UHGV virus genome: UHGV-0060833
Source of the DNA: a virus
Length of the DNA: 64,000 nt
Direction: 5' to 3' (one strand)
Below, piece by piece: positions 1 to 35,561 of the stretch. Below the pieces are notes generated by a model, which was not told the DNA's origin, made no database searches, and saw only the letters and a program-made list of their open reading frames with translations. Every line of letters begins with the position of its first letter. Positions within the stretch are counted from its first letter, which is position 1. A program made the position numbers and the translations under genes.

Positions 1-773
1 CCGATTGTTTTAAGCTGTTCTATCGCTTTCTTAATGATACGGTTTTGCTCGCCAACAGCTGACTGCAAAGCCAGGCGCTCACGGATTCGCGCGAACGATA
101 GCGGCAACGGGTTCTGCGGAAGGCTTTCGATGAAAGTGTAAATGGCTTGTGCAGCTTCTTTCTTCGGAAGGGCACGCAAGGCGTGGTGTTGCAACAGAAC
201 GCGATAATCAAGCTGGAACAGCTCCCAGAGCTTCGAATCGGCCTCCAGCTCTATCAGATCAAGGTCAGCATCAAAACGCCCGACCTTCAGCAGACCAGTC
301 TGATAGCCGCCTTTAGCATCTTTTCCGCGCTTAAAAGCGATACCCTTGTTACGCAAGCGTCCAAGTGATTCATGAATGGTTAAACGCAGTTTCGCATCCA
401 GACGTTTTGAGGGGAAACCACAGGCTTTAGCGAACTCCTGAAACGATAACTGGATGGTGTTTGAAGACAAGCCGTATTTGCTGAACGCGTAGATGACACC
501 GATCCACGTTTTGAAATCAGTATCCATATCGAGTCGAGGACCGGTGATTTTAATATCATCGTAACCCTCGGCTTTAGCTATCTCCAGCTGGGAAAACGCT
601 TTGGTGGCATCAATCTCTTTACTTTCTCCTTTGCTCTTTGATGGCTTCGGCACGAATACCCCCAAGCGCATCAACGCTACAGGCTGCACAGTGTTGTTTG
701 AATTAACTGTTAGTTCTTTTGCCTTACTTTCAATGTCTGCGTAAAGAATATCGGAGATAAATGATTGATTCAT
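1..773 (-). CDS. repA: Plasmid replication initiator RepA, C-terminus cut by window edge
   Basis: ATG at 773-771 on minus strand; frame open to position 1; translation MNQSFISDILYADIESKAKELTVNSNN... recognised as P1 RepA; abuts the iteron origin. Absent from ORF track because no stop in window. Confidence 0.85.
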   Translation of the reverse strand, partial: MNQSFISDILYADIESKAKELTVNSNNTVQPVALMRLGVFVPKPSKSKGESKEIDATKAFSQLEIAKAEGYDDIKITGPRLDMDTDFKTWIGVIYAFSKYGLSSNTIQLSFQEFAKACGFPSKRLDAKLRLTIHESLGRLRNKGIAFKRGKDAKGGYQTGLLKVGRFDADLDLIELEADSKLWELFQLDYRVLLQHHALRALPKKEAAQAIYTFIESLPQNPLPLSFARIRERLALQSAVGEQNRIIKKAIEQLKTI

Positions 774-786
774 ATTACTTTTTCCG

Positions 787-1052
787 AATTATGTGGATAG
801 TTTTTATAAGTGGTGATAACTACCCAGGCTTTCCCGTCAGCACACATCCTATATCCCGCCAGCACACATTAGCAACCCGTCAGCACACATTTTTATCCCT
901 CCAGCACACATCGTTTTCCCTCCAGCACACATCGCGATACACTTCTAAGCCAGACGTGGCGCGGCCTGCAACGATCAGGGATCTATATGGATCTAATTGG
1001 GATCTGTATGGACCTAATTATTGGATCTACCCAGTGGATAATGTGGATAAGT
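787..1052. other. Plasmid origin oriR: DnaA boxes, five iterons, GATC heptamer cluster
   Basis: TGTGGATAG at 792-800 and tandem TGGATAA boxes ~1034-1051; five ~19-bp repeats with CAGCACACA core (831-932); five GATC sites in AT-rich spacer 973-1027. Confidence 0.8.
831..932 (+). repeat. Five direct iterons (incC-type RepA binding sites)
   Basis: Five spaced copies of ...CCGTCAGCACACAT... read directly; the 97-aa ORF 761..1054 is an artefact of translating these repeats. Confidence 0.85.
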
Positions 1053-2968: not shown

Positions 2969-3204
2969 GAAACAGGGTCACCAACGCATACGATCCCTTT
3001 ACCATTGACGGTAAACCATGCCCTGGTTGATATAGCTTGCCCACCGTGCGTACTGTTTCCATCGGTATGCTGTGCATATTGCTTACCATCAACTAACACT
3101 TCGACTCCGTTGACTTTAAGTAGTGGTTCACTCTCTACAGGAGGCCTGGATGGGAATCCTCCGTGCCCCGAACAAATGCTGTCTTTTGTTGCAATACTTG
3201 CCAC
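2920..3204 (-). CDS. PAAR-like small protein (putative spike-tip cap)
   Basis: 94 aa; VGDPVSCG and ICSGHGG motifs resemble PAAR-repeat Zn-binding proteins. True start may be internal. Confidence 0.5.
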   Translation of the reverse strand: MASIATKDSICSGHGGFPSRPPVESEPLLKVNGVEVLVDGKQYAQHTDGNSTHGGQAISTRAWFTVNGKGIVCVGDPVSCGSTVASGDGLVQVS

Positions 3205-3284
3205 GTCATCACCAATTATTTGCTCTGGTTTTCGTTATTTTAACTTAGGTTACTTGTGGTCTACATGGTGTTAACTATTAAATA

Positions 3285-3301
3285 ATTGCTCTAATAAATA
3301 T
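3285..3301 (+). promoter_or_regulatory. C1 repressor operator-like site
   Basis: ATTGCTCTAATAAATAT, 15/17 to ATTGCTCTAATAAATTT; sits ~70 bp upstream of the uhr-hrdC-dmt block. Confidence 0.7.
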
Positions 3302-3372
3302 TGTTTTTTATGTCGTGTTTTCGGTACCATTCAGCCATCGCCCTTCAATGGGTATTTGTTTGGAGTCGTCAG

Positions 3373-3657
3373 ATGCAGATGGAGCTAATAAGCCGCAAAG
3401 AGTTCGATAGCCGTGTAACCAGCGGTGAACTCGACAACTTGCAGGCTATCAAGGTGAAAGAAGGCTTTTGCCTCATTGGGAATCAGAGCGGAACAAATCG
3501 CGTTTTTATGCTTCGCCGTACGGATTTGAAGCCATTTGTCTGGAAGAACGAAATTGGTCCCAGCTCATACGCTCAAACTAGGGGGTGCCTCAACCTGGCC
3601 TTTTTCTACAAAAACGAGCTTTCTGTGGTTGATATTCAAGGGTTACAACATGTTTAA
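3373..3657 (+). CDS. Small protein upstream of the rdgC homolog (P1 uhr position)
   Basis: GGAG 7 nt before ATG at 3373; overlaps hrdC start by 8 nt. Confidence 0.45.
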
Positions 3658-4555
3658 GCACTGGAAAAACATTACTATTTTTAAACTTTCTCGTGAGGCG
3701 GATCTGACCGACTTGGAAGATAAAAAGAAAATGATCCTTTTCACGCCATGCGGTAGTCAGGATATGGCCAAGTTCGGTTTTGTATCTCCATTTGGTGATA
3801 ATTCCGAAGTTATCGCTATGCATGGAAATGGTTTTATCCTTGTTGAAGCAAAGCGCGAAACAAAAATTCTTCCCCCGCCGGTTATCCAGCGAGCTATTCA
3901 AGAAAAAATTGAAAAACTCGAGCAAGAACAAGCGCGTAAACTGAAGAAAACAGAGAAGGACTCCCTGAAAGACGAAGTTCTGCATTCTCTTCTGCCACGG
4001 GCTTTTTCAAAGTTCTCTGTTATCCAGGCGATCTACGACGGTTCAACTAAACGTATCTATATCAATGCCAGCGCGCGGCAGGCAGAGGATATGCTCGCGC
4101 TTATGCGTAAATCTCTGGGTTCTCTTCCTGTTGTTCCCCTAAGTGTTGAAAATCCCATTGAATTAACGCTGACCGACTGGGTACGTGATGGTAGTGCTCC
4201 ACAGGGATTTCAAATGGGGGATGCGGCAGAACTTAAGGCAGTGCTTGAGGATGGCGGTATTGCCCGAGTGAAAAAGCAGGACTTGGGAAGTGATGAAATA
4301 TCCACACACCTGGAAGCTGGCAAGCTCGTCACTAAGTTGGCACTCGACTGGCAGAACCGCATTAAATTTACACTGGACCATAACTTCAGCCTTACCAGCG
4401 TCAAATTTGCGGATGAATTGCTTGAGCAGAACGCTGATATTGATAGTGAAGATGTTGCGCAGCGACTGGACGCAGATTTCTTCCTGTTGACCAGTGAAAT
4501 TTCGTGCCTGGTTGATGCTCTGGTAAATGCCCTTGGTGGAGAGGCTAAGCAGTGA
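3650..4555 (+). CDS. hrdC: RdgC-like recombination-associated protein
   Basis: [14 protein letters not shown]..., [48 protein letters not shown] and later blocks match E. coli RdgC along the whole length. Confidence 0.9.
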
Positions 4556-6816
4556 AAGAGCTGTGCTATGGATCTGTTTGCAGTGGAATTGAAGCCGCGA
4601 GTATTGCCTGGGAACCGTTGGGTATGCGTCCGGCGTGGTTTGCTGAAATCGAGCCTTTTCCATCTGCCGTTCTTGCGCACCGCTGGCCCCATGTCGCCAA
4701 CCTTGGCGACATGACAAAACTTGCCAAAAAAGTCCTGGCTGGGGAAATCGAATCCCCTGATGTGCTCGTCGGGGGAACACCTTGTCAGGCATTCAGTATC
4801 GCTGGATTACGTGGTGGGCTTGATGATGAGCGTGGCGCGCTAACTTTAAAGTATGTGGAGCTTGCAAATGCAATTGACGACAAACGGGCTGAGTCATTTC
4901 TCAAACCAGCCGTTATCGTCTGGGAAAATGTCCCAGGAGTCTTGTCATCGGCAGATAACGCCTTCGGATGTTTCCTTGCCGGATTGGCTGGAGAAGATGC
5001 GCCATTTGAACCAGGTGATCGACCTGAATCAGGAAAAAGTAACGCGTTCTGGCGGTGGGATGGCAAAACCGGTTGCCATGCTCCAAAGTGGCCGCAGTGT
5101 GGTTGTATTTATGGACCGCAGCGAAAGGTGGCCTGGAGAATCCTTGATGCCCAATACTTCGGAGTGGCACAACGACGCCGACGCGTGTTTGTTGTCGCAA
5201 GTGCTCGAACAGACCTCGATCCCGCAACGGTACTTTTTGAGTTCGAAGGCGTGCGCCGGGATATTGCGCCGAGCCGAAAAAAGAAGGAAATCGCTTCCGC
5301 CATTATTGCAAATGGCGCTGCAATCAGTGGCGAAAGCCTAAATCCATGCCTACATGCTGACATGCCACCCGGTATGAAATCGACGAAAGCCGTAAACGCT
5401 TTCAGGATGGCAGCATTTGGGGAATATATTGACGATGAAACCGCATCGACAGTAAAGGCAAGAGATTTTAAAGATGCCACTGACCTTGCCGTTTTTAGCA
5501 GCACAGGAGCAGCTTTTTGGTCAGAAGGGCATGGTACATTGCGGGCACGTGAGCAAGAAAGCCATGAGCATCTTGTTACATTGGCTTTTCCTGAGCGTAT
5601 GAGCGGTACACAACATGCTGCAACTAAGAATACTTCACCATCTCTAATGGCTAAAAATCCAACAGCTGTTTGCTATGAAGTAAGAAACGCAGAAGTAGCT
5701 GTCCGCCGTCTTACCCCTGTCGAATGTGAAAGGCTGCAAGGTTTTCCTGATGGGCATACGTTGATCCCGACGGAAAAGCGTAAAAAAGTTAGTTCAGATG
5801 AACTGGCATATCTTCGCAATCACTATCCAGATTTAAGCGAAGAAGAGGCCGTGATGCTTGCAGCTGACGGACCGCGTTACAAAGCGATCGGCAATAGTAT
5901 GGCAATACCAGTAATGCGCTGGATTGGCGATCGGATTACTAAGGCCGTATGTCGGCAGAAAGAAGGAAGTGAAACAAAAGAGCGAAAAGTTAAACCAGCG
6001 GCAGAATTCGAACGGTCCATATTCAAATGGGCTGGTGGAAAATTTGGTGTTCTGGAACAAATCTTTCGCTATTTGCCAGAAGGGAAGCGCCTGATTGAAC
6101 CTTTCGTTGGTGGCGGAGCTGTCTTCATGAATGCCGGATACCAGGAAAATCTGCTAAATGATGTGAATGCTGACCTGATTAACTTTTACAAGACTCTGCA
6201 ACGCGAGGCGCATTCACTTATCACTCTGGCACATCGTTTTTTCCTGGACTACAACACCCAGGAGGGATACTTGGCAGTACGGAATGCGTTTAACAAACAA
6301 GTCTATGATGATTTACATCGCGCAGCGGCGTTTTTGTTCCTGAACCGACATTGTTTTAACGGATTGACGCGTTACAACCAGGCCGGTGAGTTCAATGTCG
6401 GTTATGGGAAGTATAAAACTCCGTATTTCCCATTACAGGAGATGGAAGCCTTCCTCGGTGCGGAAGGGCGGTCTGAGTTTGTATGCGGTGATTTTGCAGC
6501 GGTGATTGAAGCTGCCGGAGAAGGAGATGTCATCTTTTGCGATCCGCCGTATGAACCGCTCCCCAATACAGAGGGGTTCACGAACTATTCCGGTCATGAC
6601 TTTAAGTTTGAAGAGCAAAAACGCCTGGTGTCTCTGTTGACGGATGCTCATCGTCGAGGTGCAAAGGTTCTCATTACTAACAGTGGCGCGCCAAACATCA
6701 GAGAGCTTTATCATGACAGTGGCTTCAGAGTGGAACCTCTTTTTGCCAGACGTTCTGTGTCTTGTAAGGGGGACACTCGAGGTGTAGCTCATGACGTTTT
6801 GGGTATATTGCTCTAA
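4552..6816 (+). CDS. dmt: Bifunctional DNA methyltransferase: N-terminal C5-cytosine MTase fused to C-terminal Dam-like N6-adenine MTase
   Basis: N-terminal GGTPCQAFS (PCQ), VIVWENVPG (ENV), [10 protein letters not shown]; C-terminal [10 protein letters not shown] and CDPPYEP (DPPY). 754 aa; start overlaps hrdC stop. Confidence 0.8.
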
Positions 6817-6823
6817 TAAATTA
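6807..6823 (+). promoter_or_regulatory. C1 operator-like site overlapping dmt stop
   Basis: ATTGCTCTAATAAATTA, 16/17 to consensus. Confidence 0.7.
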
Positions 6824-6998
6824 ATTAGTGTAATATCGCCTCAATGAATCGTGATTTATAGAGCGATTTAGCTGTTAGCCGCGACAGGCGCGGCGGTAAG
6901 CATGGCTGGGCCTAGTCCTCCCAGACAAACCACCGAGTTGCCAGGTTGACCATGCGCCTAAGTGGCAACGCCGAAGTGCGTTACGAGCTTCCAGTTTG

Positions 6999-7024
6999 CC
7001 CATCTTCGGGTGGGCGTTTTTTTC
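6999..7024 (+). terminator. Rho-independent terminator
   Basis: GCCCATC-TTCG-GGTGGGC hairpin followed by GTTTTTTT. Confidence 0.6.
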
Positions 7025-7489
7025 AGGGTTTTCGTCATGGTTAGCGACTTTGCGGCGGTTTAGAAACTGACCATTAAAGTAAATGCAAACGATGATCTGA
7101 TGATGGTAGCGGCCTAAGAAACCAGATGCCACGGGGTATGAGTCGTCCCCCGTCAAAAAAATCGACCGCAGAGTGTCCCCGTCTGTGTATTAGGGAACGG
7201 GGAGGCACAACAGGTAAGGGCGCTGGTGTGATTAACCAGATGAACGAGAAGGGGCCATCTGTTGGTCAGCGTCCTTTCCTGTTGCGTTTTCTTTTCAGCG
7301 TAACAGCGGTGCTTAACAGCACTTTGGGTACAGTTCCACGAATTTACGGGTATATCCCGTCATGCTGAAGGCGCTAATCACGCTGGAAGCCAGGGTTGTG
7401 CATCCCCTGTTACCGAATTGCAGCCAGGGCGCGGTGCGCCGAAAAGCATACGGAGGTGGAAGCCCTCGCCGGAGACGTACCCGGCAAGT

Positions 7490-7565
7490 GATGGTGTAGC
7501 TCAGCGTTTAGAGCGGTTGACTATTAATCAACGGGTCGATGGTTCAAATCCATCCACCATCGCCA
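7490..7565 (+). tRNA. tRNA with anticodon loop CUAUUAA (anticodon AUU, nominally Asn)
   Basis: Folded by eye: acceptor GATGGTG/CACCATC, T-loop TTCAAAT, 5-bp anticodon stem GTTGA/TCAAC, encoded CCA. A at position 34 is atypical. Confidence 0.8.
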
Positions 7566-7567
7566 AT

Positions 7568-7643
7568 GCCGGTTTAGCTCAGTTGGTAGAGCGCCTGCCT
7601 TGTAAGCAGGATGTCAGCGGTTCGAGTCCGTTAATCGGCACCA
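7568..7643 (+). tRNA. tRNA-Thr (anticodon UGU)
   Basis: Acceptor GCCGGTT/AATCGGC with one G-U, D-loop AGTTGGTAG, anticodon loop CTTGTAA, T-loop TTCGAGT, encoded CCA; 2 nt after the preceding tRNA. Confidence 0.9.
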
Positions 7644-7651
7644 GCACAACA

Positions 7652-7725
7652 GGTAAGGGTATTTTGCGACGCCGGAGATCGCCGAGCTTGGCAGAGGGTT
7701 CGAATCCCTACGAAGTACCCTTACC
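7652..7725 (+). ncRNA. tRNA-like element: 10-bp acceptor-like stem, D-arm-like hairpin, canonical T-arm, no anticodon arm
   Basis: GGTAAGGGTA pairs TACCCTTACC; AGGG-TTCGAAT-CCCT T-arm; GCGA-CGCCGGAGA-TCGC D-like arm; only ~11 nt where the anticodon arm should be. Confidence 0.3.
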
Positions 7726-7894
7726 GTTGTGATGAAGTGCAGCTCTTTGAAGCAACCAGAAGATAAGCATCTGGCTTCACAACATAAACCGCAGGAACGA
7801 CCAATAAACGGTAGTCCGTATGGAGAACACCCCGTTGAGGAAGAGGCCTGGCCGGAACCGTAACCGGCACTACAACGTTGAGAACACTGGCGTA

Positions 7895-7976
7895 ACGGGG
7901 TCATATCCCAATCTACGAATAAATGTTGCGTTGCAGCGTGACAACCAGTGTTCTCAACATTGTGGTGAATGCACAG
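7895..7976 (+). repeat. Copy 1 of a repeated non-coding element
   Basis: Shares GTAACGGG-T-CATATCCCAATCTAC ... GTTGCG ... GTGAATGC with 8172-8234; embedded in a long inverted repeat (7872-7890 vs 7945-7963). Confidence 0.4.
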
Positions 7977-8171
7977 GCTGATGTGCCGCAACTACAGTAG
8001 TGCGCGCTTTGCGGGGCTTGCTACAACCCTGTGTCGGAGTTCAGCACCGACCATCACAGTTTGATTCTCTGGCATGAGCATAACGCTGAAATAAGTCCAG
8101 TCTGGTGCGGCCCGATCACCCGCCGTTAGCTCCACGAAACGGAGCACGTAACAGGTAAGAGCATTCTCCTG

Positions 8172-8234
8172 TAACGGGTTCATATCCCAATCTACAGGTC
8201 CACCAAGAATGCTCTTTCCGTTGCGGTGAATGCG
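8172..8234 (+). repeat. Copy 2 of the repeated non-coding element
   Basis: AACGGGTTCATATCCCAATCTAC ... GTTGCGGTGAATGCG; no credible ORF across it. Confidence 0.4.
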
Positions 8235-8374
8235 GCTAAGCGCACGCGGGGAAATGGTTATATCTGTCCATTATTTCTCCTTGTTTCCACGTCCACGGTG
8301 GATAACCAGCCAAAGGACACCGGGAGGCACCCGGCACCGCAACCTTATTTCCCAACCAGTAATGAGGTTAATAA

Positions 8375-8800
8375 ATGCTCGGCATTCTCAAAAAGAAATT
8401 CCGCAAAGCGGCTGGCGGAGTCAAGAAGATGGAAAACCGTGATGCGGTGGAAGCGACTGTCTGGGGCGCATATTCCATTGCATACTCTGACGGCACCTGC
8501 GATGCGAAAGAAATTGCAGTATTGGAAAAAACCATTGCAGCACTTCCTGCCTTTGCGCCGTTCTCCGGTGAAATTGCCCAGATGAGCGCCAATATTCGCG
8601 CTCAATATGAAGCCTCGCCGCGCCGAGCGAATGCCCAGGCTTTACGTGAACTGGCTGACGTGTCTGGAACTAATGATGCGGTAGATGTTCTGTGCCTATG
8701 CATTGATATTGCTGACCAGGATGGCATTGGGGCAGAAGATCAGGAGCAATTGAAGAAAATTGCCCAGGCTCTTCAATTGCCACTGGAACAGTATATCTGA
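8375..8800 (+). CDS. TerB-like domain protein (P1 tciA position)
   Basis: 141 aa with TerB-like pattern (AYSIAYSDGTCDAKEIAVLEKTIAAL ... LCLCIDIADQDGIGAEDQEQLKKIA). Confidence 0.6.
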   Translation: MLGILKKKFRKAAGGVKKMENRDAVEATVWGAYSIAYSDGTCDAKEIAVLEKTIAALPAFAPFSGEIAQMSANIRAQYEASPRRANAQALRELADVSGTNDAVDVLCLCIDIADQDGIGAEDQEQLKKIAQALQLPLEQYI

Positions 8801-8964
8801 TGGTTATAAAAGCACGTCTAATTCTGGCTTTGGTTTTTCTCGTGCTATCTGTGCTGGTGGATTTCACCAGCACAATCCTGTCGGTTTTATCCGACGGGGC
8901 GTTGGTAGCAGTAGCTGTAACATTGGTATGGCCGATATTTAAACCAGCCTCGAAGGATCAGTGA
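8800..8964 (+). CDS. Small hydrophobic membrane peptide (54 aa)
   Basis: ATG overlaps upstream stop (TGATG); MVIKARLILALVFLVLSVLVDFTSTILSVLSDGALVAVAVTLVWPIF...; below ORF-track size cutoff. Confidence 0.4.
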   Translation: MVIKARLILALVFLVLSVLVDFTSTILSVLSDGALVAVAVTLVWPIFKPASKDQ

Positions 8965-31365: not shown

Positions 31366-32559
31366 GTGACCTGGGACGATCACAAGAAGAATTTTGCTCG
31401 CCTGGCGCGAGATGGTGGTTACACCATCGCACAGTATGCCGCCGAGTTTAATCTTAACCCTAATACCGCACGTCGTTATCTCCGTGCCTTCAAAGAAGAC
31501 ACCAGGACTGCGGACAGCCGCAAGCCAAATAAGCCAGTCAGGAAGCCACTAAAAAGCATGATCATTGATCACTCTAATGATCAACATGCAGGTGATCATA
31601 TTGCGGCTGAAATAGCGGAAAAACAAAGAGTTAATGCTGTTGTCAGTGCCGCAGTCGAGAACGCTAAGCGCCAAAATAAGCGCATAAATGATCGTTCAGA
31701 TGATCATGACGTGATCACCCGTGCCCACCGGACCTTACGTGATCGCCTGGAACGCGACACCCTGGATGATGATGGTGAACGCTTTGAATTCGAAGCTGGC
31801 GATTACCTGATAGATAACGTTGAAGCGCGGAAGGCCGCGCGCGCTATGTTGCGTCGTTCCGGAGCTGATGTTCTGGAAACCACTCTTCTGGAAAAGTCTC
31901 TTTCTCATCTCCTTATGCTGGAGAACGCCCGGGATACGTGTATTCGCCTGGTGCAGGAAATGCGCGATCAGCAAAAAGACGATGATGAAGGTACTCCGCC
32001 TGAATACCGTATCGCGAGCATGCTAAACAGCTGTTCCGCGCAGATAAGCAGCCTGATCAACACCATTTACAGCATCCGGAATAACTATCGAAAAGAAAGC
32101 CGGGAGGCGGAAAAGCACGCTTTGTCTATGGGGCAAGCTGGCATTGTTAAGCTGGCATACGAACGAAAGCGTGAAAATAACTGGTCAGTGCTGGAAGCGG
32201 CTGAATTCATCGAGGCGCATGGAGGGAAAGTGCCGCCCCTGATGCTGGAGCAAATCAAAGCCGATCTGCGTGCTCCTAAGACAAATGCCGATGATGAGGA
32301 AAGGCAAACTGCCGTCGGTGGCCCTTCTCTTGAAGATCTGGACAAAGTTGCGCGAGAACGGGCCGCCAGCCGCCGCGCTGATGCCGCATTGTGGATTGAG
32401 CATCGTAGAGAAGAAATTGCCGATATCGTCGATACAGGTGGTTATGGTGATGTCGATGCGGAAGGCATATCAAACGAAGCATGGCTTGAACAGGAGCTGG
32501 ACGAAGACGAGGAGGAAGACGAAGAAGTTACCCGCAAACTGTACGGGGATGATGATTAA
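31366..32559 (+). CDS. pacA: Terminase small subunit PacA
   Basis: GTG start with AAGGAAG RBS; [39 protein letters not shown]...; contains the pac site; acidic C-terminus. Confidence 0.85.
31560..31716 (+). other. pac packaging site: 4 + 3 GATC-containing hexanucleotide elements flanking the cleavage region
   Basis: GATC at 31560, 31567, 31579, 31593 (left) and 31690, 31702, 31713 (right), each within TGATCA-like hexamers, inside pacA. Confidence 0.8.
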
Positions 32560-35477: not shown

Positions 35478-35494
35478 ATAATTTATTAGAGCAA
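35478..35494 (-). promoter_or_regulatory. C1 operator (immC control region)
   Basis: Reverse complement ATTGCTCTAATAAATTA, 16/17. Confidence 0.75.
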
Positions 35495-35561
35495 TTGTCA
35501 AACAACTATGAAAAACAATCCAGTTTTTGGCTGGTGGAGTGGGATTTTTCTCTCAAAATTT

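Follow-up and report, generated by a model that had tools for sequence, protein, structure and literature searches.

The stretch analysed here, a viral genome of 64,000 nucleotides (UHGV-0060833; the window hereafter), contains at 4552-6816 an uninterrupted open reading frame (ORF) of 754 amino acids, namely dmt of a phage-plasmid of the P1 type (Punavirus, IncY), orthologous and syntenic with dmt of phage P1. The two genes are 98.4% identical with 100% of the 2265 nucleotides aligned (AF234172, 66412-68676), and the proteins, whose alignment the preliminary description had proposed, share 99% identity. The dmt genes of other punaviruses are 96.7-98.9% identical in nucleotides to that of the window, the E. 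coli IncY plasmid NZ_AP027786.1 carries a 100% identical gene, and PLSDB holds dmt in 498 plasmids, mainly non-mobilizable E. coli and Salmonella elements. Because the neighbourhood is that of P1 and the same gene sits in PLSDB plasmids including NZ_AP027786.1, we assign the window to a P1-like phage-plasmid. The gene itself is not new: that its product has two domains, and that the Dam half acts in pac cleavage, was reported for P1 decades ago, and the GenBank P1 record already labels it "bifunctional DNA methyltransferase".

That a single polypeptide joins a C5-cytosine methyltransferase (C5) to a Dam-like N6-adenine methyltransferase had been read from the motifs PCQ, ENV and GN in one half and KWAGGK and DPPY in the other. 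Every one of these motifs was located in the frame (Table 1), both catalytic sets are complete, and the occurrence of the named motifs is far beyond chance. Careful alignment in search of lost catalytic residues found Cys78 of PCQ and DPPY both retained, and the observation is therefore confirmed. A ribosome-binding site, GGAGAGG, lies about 8 nucleotides 5' of the GTG start, and the linker that separates the two enzymes is divergent in pPSS-10_3, with an indel of 3 amino acids.

Table 1. Coordinates of dmt, its domains and motifs, the neighbouring genes and operators, and the GATC clusters in the window.
Feature	Position (nt)	Residues	Strand	Basis or remark
dmt, 754-aa bifunctional DNA methyltransferase	4552..6816	1-754	+	GTG start, TAA stop; uninterrupted ORF
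C5-cytosine methyltransferase half	4552..5943	1-464	+	PF00145, TIGR00675, motif alignment to M.HhaI
Motif I, CSGIE		10-14	+	C5 half
Motif IV, GGTPCQAFS, catalytic Cys78	4771-4797	74-82	+	C5 half
Motif VI, WENVPG (ENV 125-127)	4921-4938	124-129	+	C5 half
Motif VIII, QRRRRVF (QRRRR 207-211)		207-213	+	C5 half
Variable central cassette, 151-aa P1 type	5251..5703	234-384	+	alignments with P1, P7 and other alleles
Motif IX		385-399	+	C5 half
Motif X, AIGNSM (GNS 447-449)	5884-5901	445-450	+	C5 half
Charged linker between the two enzymes	5944..6015	465-488	+	falls between Pfam/NCBIfam domain limits
Dam-family (D12 class) N6-adenine methyltransferase half	6016..6813	489-754	+	PF02086, TIGR00571, alignment to E. 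coli Dam 2g1p
KWAGGK	6025-6042	492-497	+	Dam half
FVGGG, S-adenosylmethionine (AdoMet) motif (FxGxG)		518-522	+	Dam half
NGLTRYN, recognition loop			+	Dam half
DPPY, catalytic motif	6541-6552	664-667	+	Dam half
C1 repressor operator Odmt (former Op68), ATTGCTCTAATAAATAT	3285..3301		+	exact match; P1 annotation 65145-65190
Promoter Pdmt, -35 TTGTTT and -10 TACCAT	3301-3306 and 3325-3330		+	transferred from P1
uhr, which opens the dmt transcription unit	3373..3657		+	P1 uhr 65233-65517, offset 61860; ORF and DNA alignment
hrdC, RdgC-family recombination-associated protein	3650..4555		+	P1 hrdC 65510-66415; ORF
C1 operator Oban-a, ATTGCTCTAATAAATTA, start of the ban control region	6807..6823		+	P1 annotation 68667-68694; sequence match
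oriR, five GATC sites	973..1027			Dam methylation sites 1-5 in the P1 annotation, all identical in the window
pac packaging site within pacA, with seven hexamers TGATCA/G (4+3)	31559..31718			sequence scan; PMC10028697

The two methyltransferase halves

The C-terminal half of Dmt matches PF02086 (Pfam) over residues 493-725 (E=1.7e-56, 192 bits) and the Dam-family model TIGR00571 (NCBIfam) with 248.8 bits against a curated cutoff of 114.85, and its FVGGG motif precedes DPPY, the order of the alpha group. Residues 5-266 of E. coli Dam (2g1p) align with it end to end (E=2.7e-58) and DpnM (2dpm) aligns with E=1.7e-43; motif order and DPPY are the same in both, whereas only Dmt is fused to another enzyme. 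The residues through which E. coli Dam contacts GATC are reportedly, from the work of Horton et al. in 2006, K9, Y119, N120, L122, R124, P134 and Y138. In the 2g1p alignment, K9, N120, L122, R124 and Y138 fall on K492, N603, L605, R607 and Y621 of Dmt, with DPPY at 664-667.

The GATC clusters that the preliminary description had placed at pac and oriR are found at both sites (31559-31718 and 973-1027, respectively), and the GATC density of either cluster was equalled in only 1 of 200 base shuffles. The pac site of P1 is a 161-bp stretch of pacA with seven TGATCA/G hexamers (PMC10028697), and in the window the 7 GATC at 31560-31713 all lie within such hexamers. Cleavage of P1 pac requires GATC methylation, so that in a Dam- host the phage cannot do without its own enzyme (Sternberg & Coulby 1990, as related in PMC12707154), and dmt is non-essential by CRISPR interference (CRISPRi) in a Dam+ host (PMC10695390). 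The proposal that the Dam half makes both packaging and replication independent of host Dam thus stands for packaging, on the published P1 pac data. For replication it is not supported: since oriR works in the C1-repressed plasmid state, when dmt should be off, it is unlikely that Dmt frees oriR from host Dam.

In the N-terminal half, two stretches match PF00145 (Pfam; E=3.7e-36, 125.6 bits against a cutoff of 22), and TIGR00675 (NCBIfam, dcm superfamily) is matched with 117.2 bits against a curated cutoff of 100.65. Alignment to M.HhaI pairs motifs IV, VI, VIII, IX and X, with Cys78 on Cys81 of M.HhaI. Compared with M.HhaI and M.HaeIII, however, the inserts between motifs VI and VIII and between IX and X are much longer, the central cassette is unrelated and larger, and motif I is atypical. 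The host Dcm model NF007772 gives 22.7 bits against a cutoff of 710; Dmt is therefore no Dcm orthologue, and CCWGG specificity is not to be assumed. Conservation was counted in 120 representatives of 90%-identity clusters of Dmt relatives: QRRRR is found in 120, ENV and GNS in 119 each, and GGTPCQ is intact in 101, while an intein breaks the same site in 18. In comparisons with P1, P7 and pPSS-10_3, the ratio of nonsynonymous to synonymous divergence (dN/dS) for the C5 catalytic core is 0.075, 0.080 and 0.166, respectively; for the Dam half it is 0.04-0.15 against P1, P7 and pSA186_4, with saturation against pPSS-10_3. By these ratios, purifying selection acts on the C5 core to a degree comparable with the Dam half. 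The sequence evidence therefore favours an active C5 enzyme.

Exchangeable cassettes, inteins and relatives

C5 methyltransferases carry their target-recognition domain between motifs VIII and IX, and it is here that Dmt holds its variable cassette. The 120 representatives fall into size classes of 69, 107, 151, 243 and 253-259 amino acids, at least five versions, and among otherwise near-identical P1-like elements the cassette is replaced in frame between nearly invariant flanks. Because the cassette classes differ, so do the gene lengths in plasmids, with classes of 2019, 2265 and 2589 bp, each class occurring also in a form 1023 bp longer. P7 Dam (AAQ07538.1, 672 amino acids) and the allele of pSA186_4 (WP_096858723.1, 862 amino acids) are the same fusion at the same locus, with near-identical cores and Dam half, but have cassettes of 69 and 259 amino acids in place of the 151 here, which presumably give them a different cytosine target. 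Against pPSS-10_3, the synonymous divergence (dS) is 0.22 in the N-terminal core and 0.65 in the C-terminal part of the C5 half, and is saturated in the Dam half. Such sharply unequal values between segments, together with the cassette classes, make dmt a recombinational mosaic.

No specificity could be derived for the cassette from its relatives: a search of the PDB with the cassette gave no match even at E<=10, and tblastn against phages matched only unannotated C5 enzymes, none of known specificity. The latter search also showed that the middle of the cassette (...FRMAAFGEY...) is a conserved element of the subfamily and not its variable part. Tandem recognition modules of the T-L-x-A type, suspected by eye, were rejected, as Smith-Waterman self-comparison scored no better than shuffles (77 of 100 shuffles equalled the score of the 151-amino-acid cassette and 36 of 100 that of the 259-amino-acid one, in a weak test that uses sequence only). 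A precedent for modular recognition is provided by the Bacillus phages SPR, phi3T and rho11s, whose multispecific C5 enzymes have an exchangeable recognition region and are thought to protect against several restriction systems (concept cited in PMC12707154). Dmt resembles these enzymes in being a phage-borne C5 methyltransferase with a modular recognition region, a likeness of concept. The SPR/phi3T type has tandem modules between motifs VIII and IX, whereas the Dmt cassette has no statistically detectable ones.

In a survey of architectures among 50%-identity representatives, the fusion of a C5 to a D12 enzyme was kept in seven further clusters, 52-67% identical, and is thus an established domain arrangement, though one seldom discussed. 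The majority of relatives consist of a C5 enzyme alone and match just the C5 core, at 55-70% identity. In one relative, an adenine methyltransferase of the MT-A70 family takes the place of the D12 Dam in the fusion with the same C5 core, and the pairing of a cytosine with an adenine methyltransferase thus seems, from these architectures, to have arisen more than once in the family of this core. Some NCBI records call Dmt a 'multidrug DMT transporter permease', apparently an error introduced via the symbol dmt (drug/metabolite transporter).

Many dmt alleles outside the window, such as that of phage RCS47, have an insertion of 341 amino acids directly before the catalytic Cys of PCQ. Its first residue is Cys and its last two are His-Asn, Cys78 comes next, and the Pfam models Hint_2 and LAGLIDADG_3 both match it. 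On account of these termini and matches we regard it as a homing intein that uses the catalytic Cys of the methyltransferase itself as its +1 nucleophile. Alleles with P1-type and with P7-type cassettes have it (spans of 3288 and 3042 bp), as do relatives with as little as 52% identity, and no description of an intein at the catalytic Cys of Dmt was found in the accessible literature.

P1 Dmt (AAQ14041.1), reportedly the protein formerly called P1 Dam, of Coulby and Sternberg in 1988, equals the Dmt of the window in its length of 754 amino acids, its 151-amino-acid cassette, its operon, its operators and its neighbours. It differs at about ten amino acids, notably in having W74 where the window has G74. 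The laboratory P1 records AF234172 and AF234173 read VLVWGTPCQ, while the window, P7, RCS47 and the 120 cluster representatives read VLVGGTPCQ or are split by the intein; judged by this position, the active site of the C5 half may be impaired in the classical allele of P1. In AF234173, the allele marked 'dmt incomplete' has lost residues 606-712, a part of the Dam half that includes DPPY. We therefore abandoned the idea that laboratory strains of P1 selectively lose the C5 half and thereby avoid Mcr in K-12: the deletion hits the Dam half, and W74 is the sole remaining hint.

Transcriptional context

The gene order is that of P1, Odmt - uhr - hrdC - dmt - Oban - tRNA-Asn/Thr - ... - ban, and the TGA stop of hrdC overlaps the GTG start of dmt (GTGA). 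Of the three genes in the transcription unit uhr-hrdC-dmt, dmt comes last. Odmt overlaps the -35 element of Pdmt in a stretch that is identical in the window and P1. Because the promoter overlaps a C1 operator conserved in the window, dmt is expected to be silent in the lysogen; it should be repressed there and expressed only in lytic growth, which fits the methylation of concatemeric DNA before packaging.

At its other end, the last three sense codons of dmt and its stop (...ATA TTG CTC TAA) lie inside Oban-a, and the same bases thus encode the C terminus of Dmt and a repressor-binding site. Oban-a is the first half of the divalent C1 operator of ban; exact C1 operator cores are found elsewhere at 3285 and 22436 on the + strand and at 35481-35495 on the - strand. 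Some 180 nucleotides downstream of dmt, at 6994-7016 on the + strand, a strong terminator-like hairpin is followed by a T-run. It lies within the region annotated in P1 as 'dicF-like' (P1 68791-68892, window ~6931-7032), and an Rfam scan of 3000-9500 at the gathering threshold gave no DicF match.

Downstream of dmt follow genes for tRNA-Asn, tRNA-Thr and a tRNA with a CAT anticodon. The tRNA-Asn (7490-7565, + strand) differs at two positions from those of P1, P7, RCS47 and pSA186_4, G18 to T in the D-loop and G34 to A, the latter giving an ATT anticodon instead of GTT. Alone among 713 plasmid records, NZ_AP027786.1 is identical over the 261-bp stretch with this tRNA, which could be a decaying tRNA, one with altered decoding, or an assembly error also present in NZ_AP027786.1.

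The role of Dmt

What can be concluded about the function of the fused enzyme? The explanation that we consider very probable as a whole is that of a P1-like dmt gene whose product carries two independent methyltransferases on a short linker, with the Dam half serving pac cleavage, expression confined to lytic growth, and an active C5 half placing protective 5-methylcytosine (m5C) at sites set by the cassette. The Dam half would methylate GATC, and the PacA/PacB pacase would need the methylated pac hexamers, both as published for P1; since pac methylated by Dmt could be cleaved by PacA/PacB, DNA packaging would go on even where the host lacks Dam. Expression of dmt, shut off in the lysogen, would start upon induction or infection, and progeny DNA would be methylated before it is packaged. 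The C5 half would mark this DNA with m5C and shield it, once in a new host, from certain restriction enzymes of Type II, with a specificity set by the exchangeable central cassette. An anti-restriction role of this kind is plausible and, given the turnover of cassettes in the compared alleles, its most natural reading.

Several points weigh against this explanation. For the Dam half, only five of the seven positions that contact GATC in E. coli Dam are identical, Y119 being replaced by F602 and P134 by G617, and because these two differ, the case for strict GATC specificity of the allele in the window comes from the 99% identity to P1 Dmt and from the P1 experiments, not from the contact residues. 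The host-Dam equivalog NF008152 gives 243.3 bits against a cutoff of 441, which makes this half a member of the Dam family and not an orthologue of host Dam. For the C5 half, motif I reads C-S-G-I-E rather than the canonical FxGxG, with the Pfam alignment starting from profile position 5. No report of m5C activity or of the target sequence of any Dmt was found in the accessible literature, and the P1 record says of this half only 'perhaps at C5 cytosine'. Furthermore, m5C marks would expose the DNA to McrBC-type restriction in K-12-like hosts, which complicates a protective role.

Were the C5 half active but mainly non-protective, it could exert epigenetic control over phage or host genes or interfere with host defence or repair. 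Such a role would suit a gene co-transcribed with a homologue of the recombination-associated RdgC; orphan phage methyltransferases have often been proposed to be regulatory, and P1 already has its Dar anti-restriction system (both according to PMC12707154). However, an arms race against diverse restriction systems would lead one to expect just such frequent cassette replacement, which is hard to fit with a fixed regulatory target, so that we regard a mainly non-protective role as unlikely.

Still less likely is that the C5 half is a dead relic, or a DNA-binding or structural appendage, and that Dmt acts simply as a phage Dam. This would agree with the facts that m5C activity has never been demonstrated for Dmt, that many databases name it only 'Dam family', and that motif I is unusual; and with W74 next to the catalytic loop (WGTPCQ), a residue found in 0 of the 120 representatives, at least the P1 allele may be impaired, and the C5 half studied in all the classical experiments on P1 may have been a weakened one. 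But the unusual CSGIE is itself conserved, in 116 of the 120 representatives, the six diagnostic motifs including Cys78 are kept in the window and in nearly all relatives, and the core is 55-70% identical to the C5 enzymes of a large, unfused family. With a dN/dS of 0.075-0.17 in the catalytic core and cassettes exchanged in frame, motif conservation and purifying selection thus disfavour a relic.

The least likely alternative, in which an internal promoter or start yields the Dam part as a product of its own, beside or instead of the fusion, could draw on the late promoter LPdam2 predicted inside the gene in the P7 record (site present in the window at 5786-5804, altered at 2 of 19 positions), on the in-frame M435, M450 and M455 upstream of the Dam half and on the separate listing of dmt-A and dmt-B in a CRISPRi study (PMC10695390), but LPdam2 is only a prediction, is absent from the P1 annotation and has an altered -22 element in the window, a consensus sigma-70 scan found no promoter-like site on the + strand inside dmt, the frame is continuous in the 467 plasmids that cover at least 80% of dmt, and the fusion is kept down to 52% identity, which would be unexpected if only the Dam part mattered.

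The fused, two-enzyme Dmt thus remains the preferred explanation. More tentatively, and with distinctly less confidence than we place in that explanation, we suggest that recombination shuffles the cassette of an active C5 half and thereby changes the protected motif, so that Dmt would combine a swappable anti-restriction module with a conserved packaging Dam. In that case W74 may have hidden the cytosine activity in laboratory P1, and in many alleles C5 activity would further require that the intein at the catalytic Cys be spliced out.

For the window itself the matter is of little weight, as the gene already stands in the GenBank annotation. Hundreds of E. coli and Salmonella phage-plasmids carry the C5 half, and resistance genes such as mcr-1 are present on some of them. 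If the cassette does set an anti-restriction specificity, it would help to explain the host range of P1-like elements and of P1-based delivery vectors.

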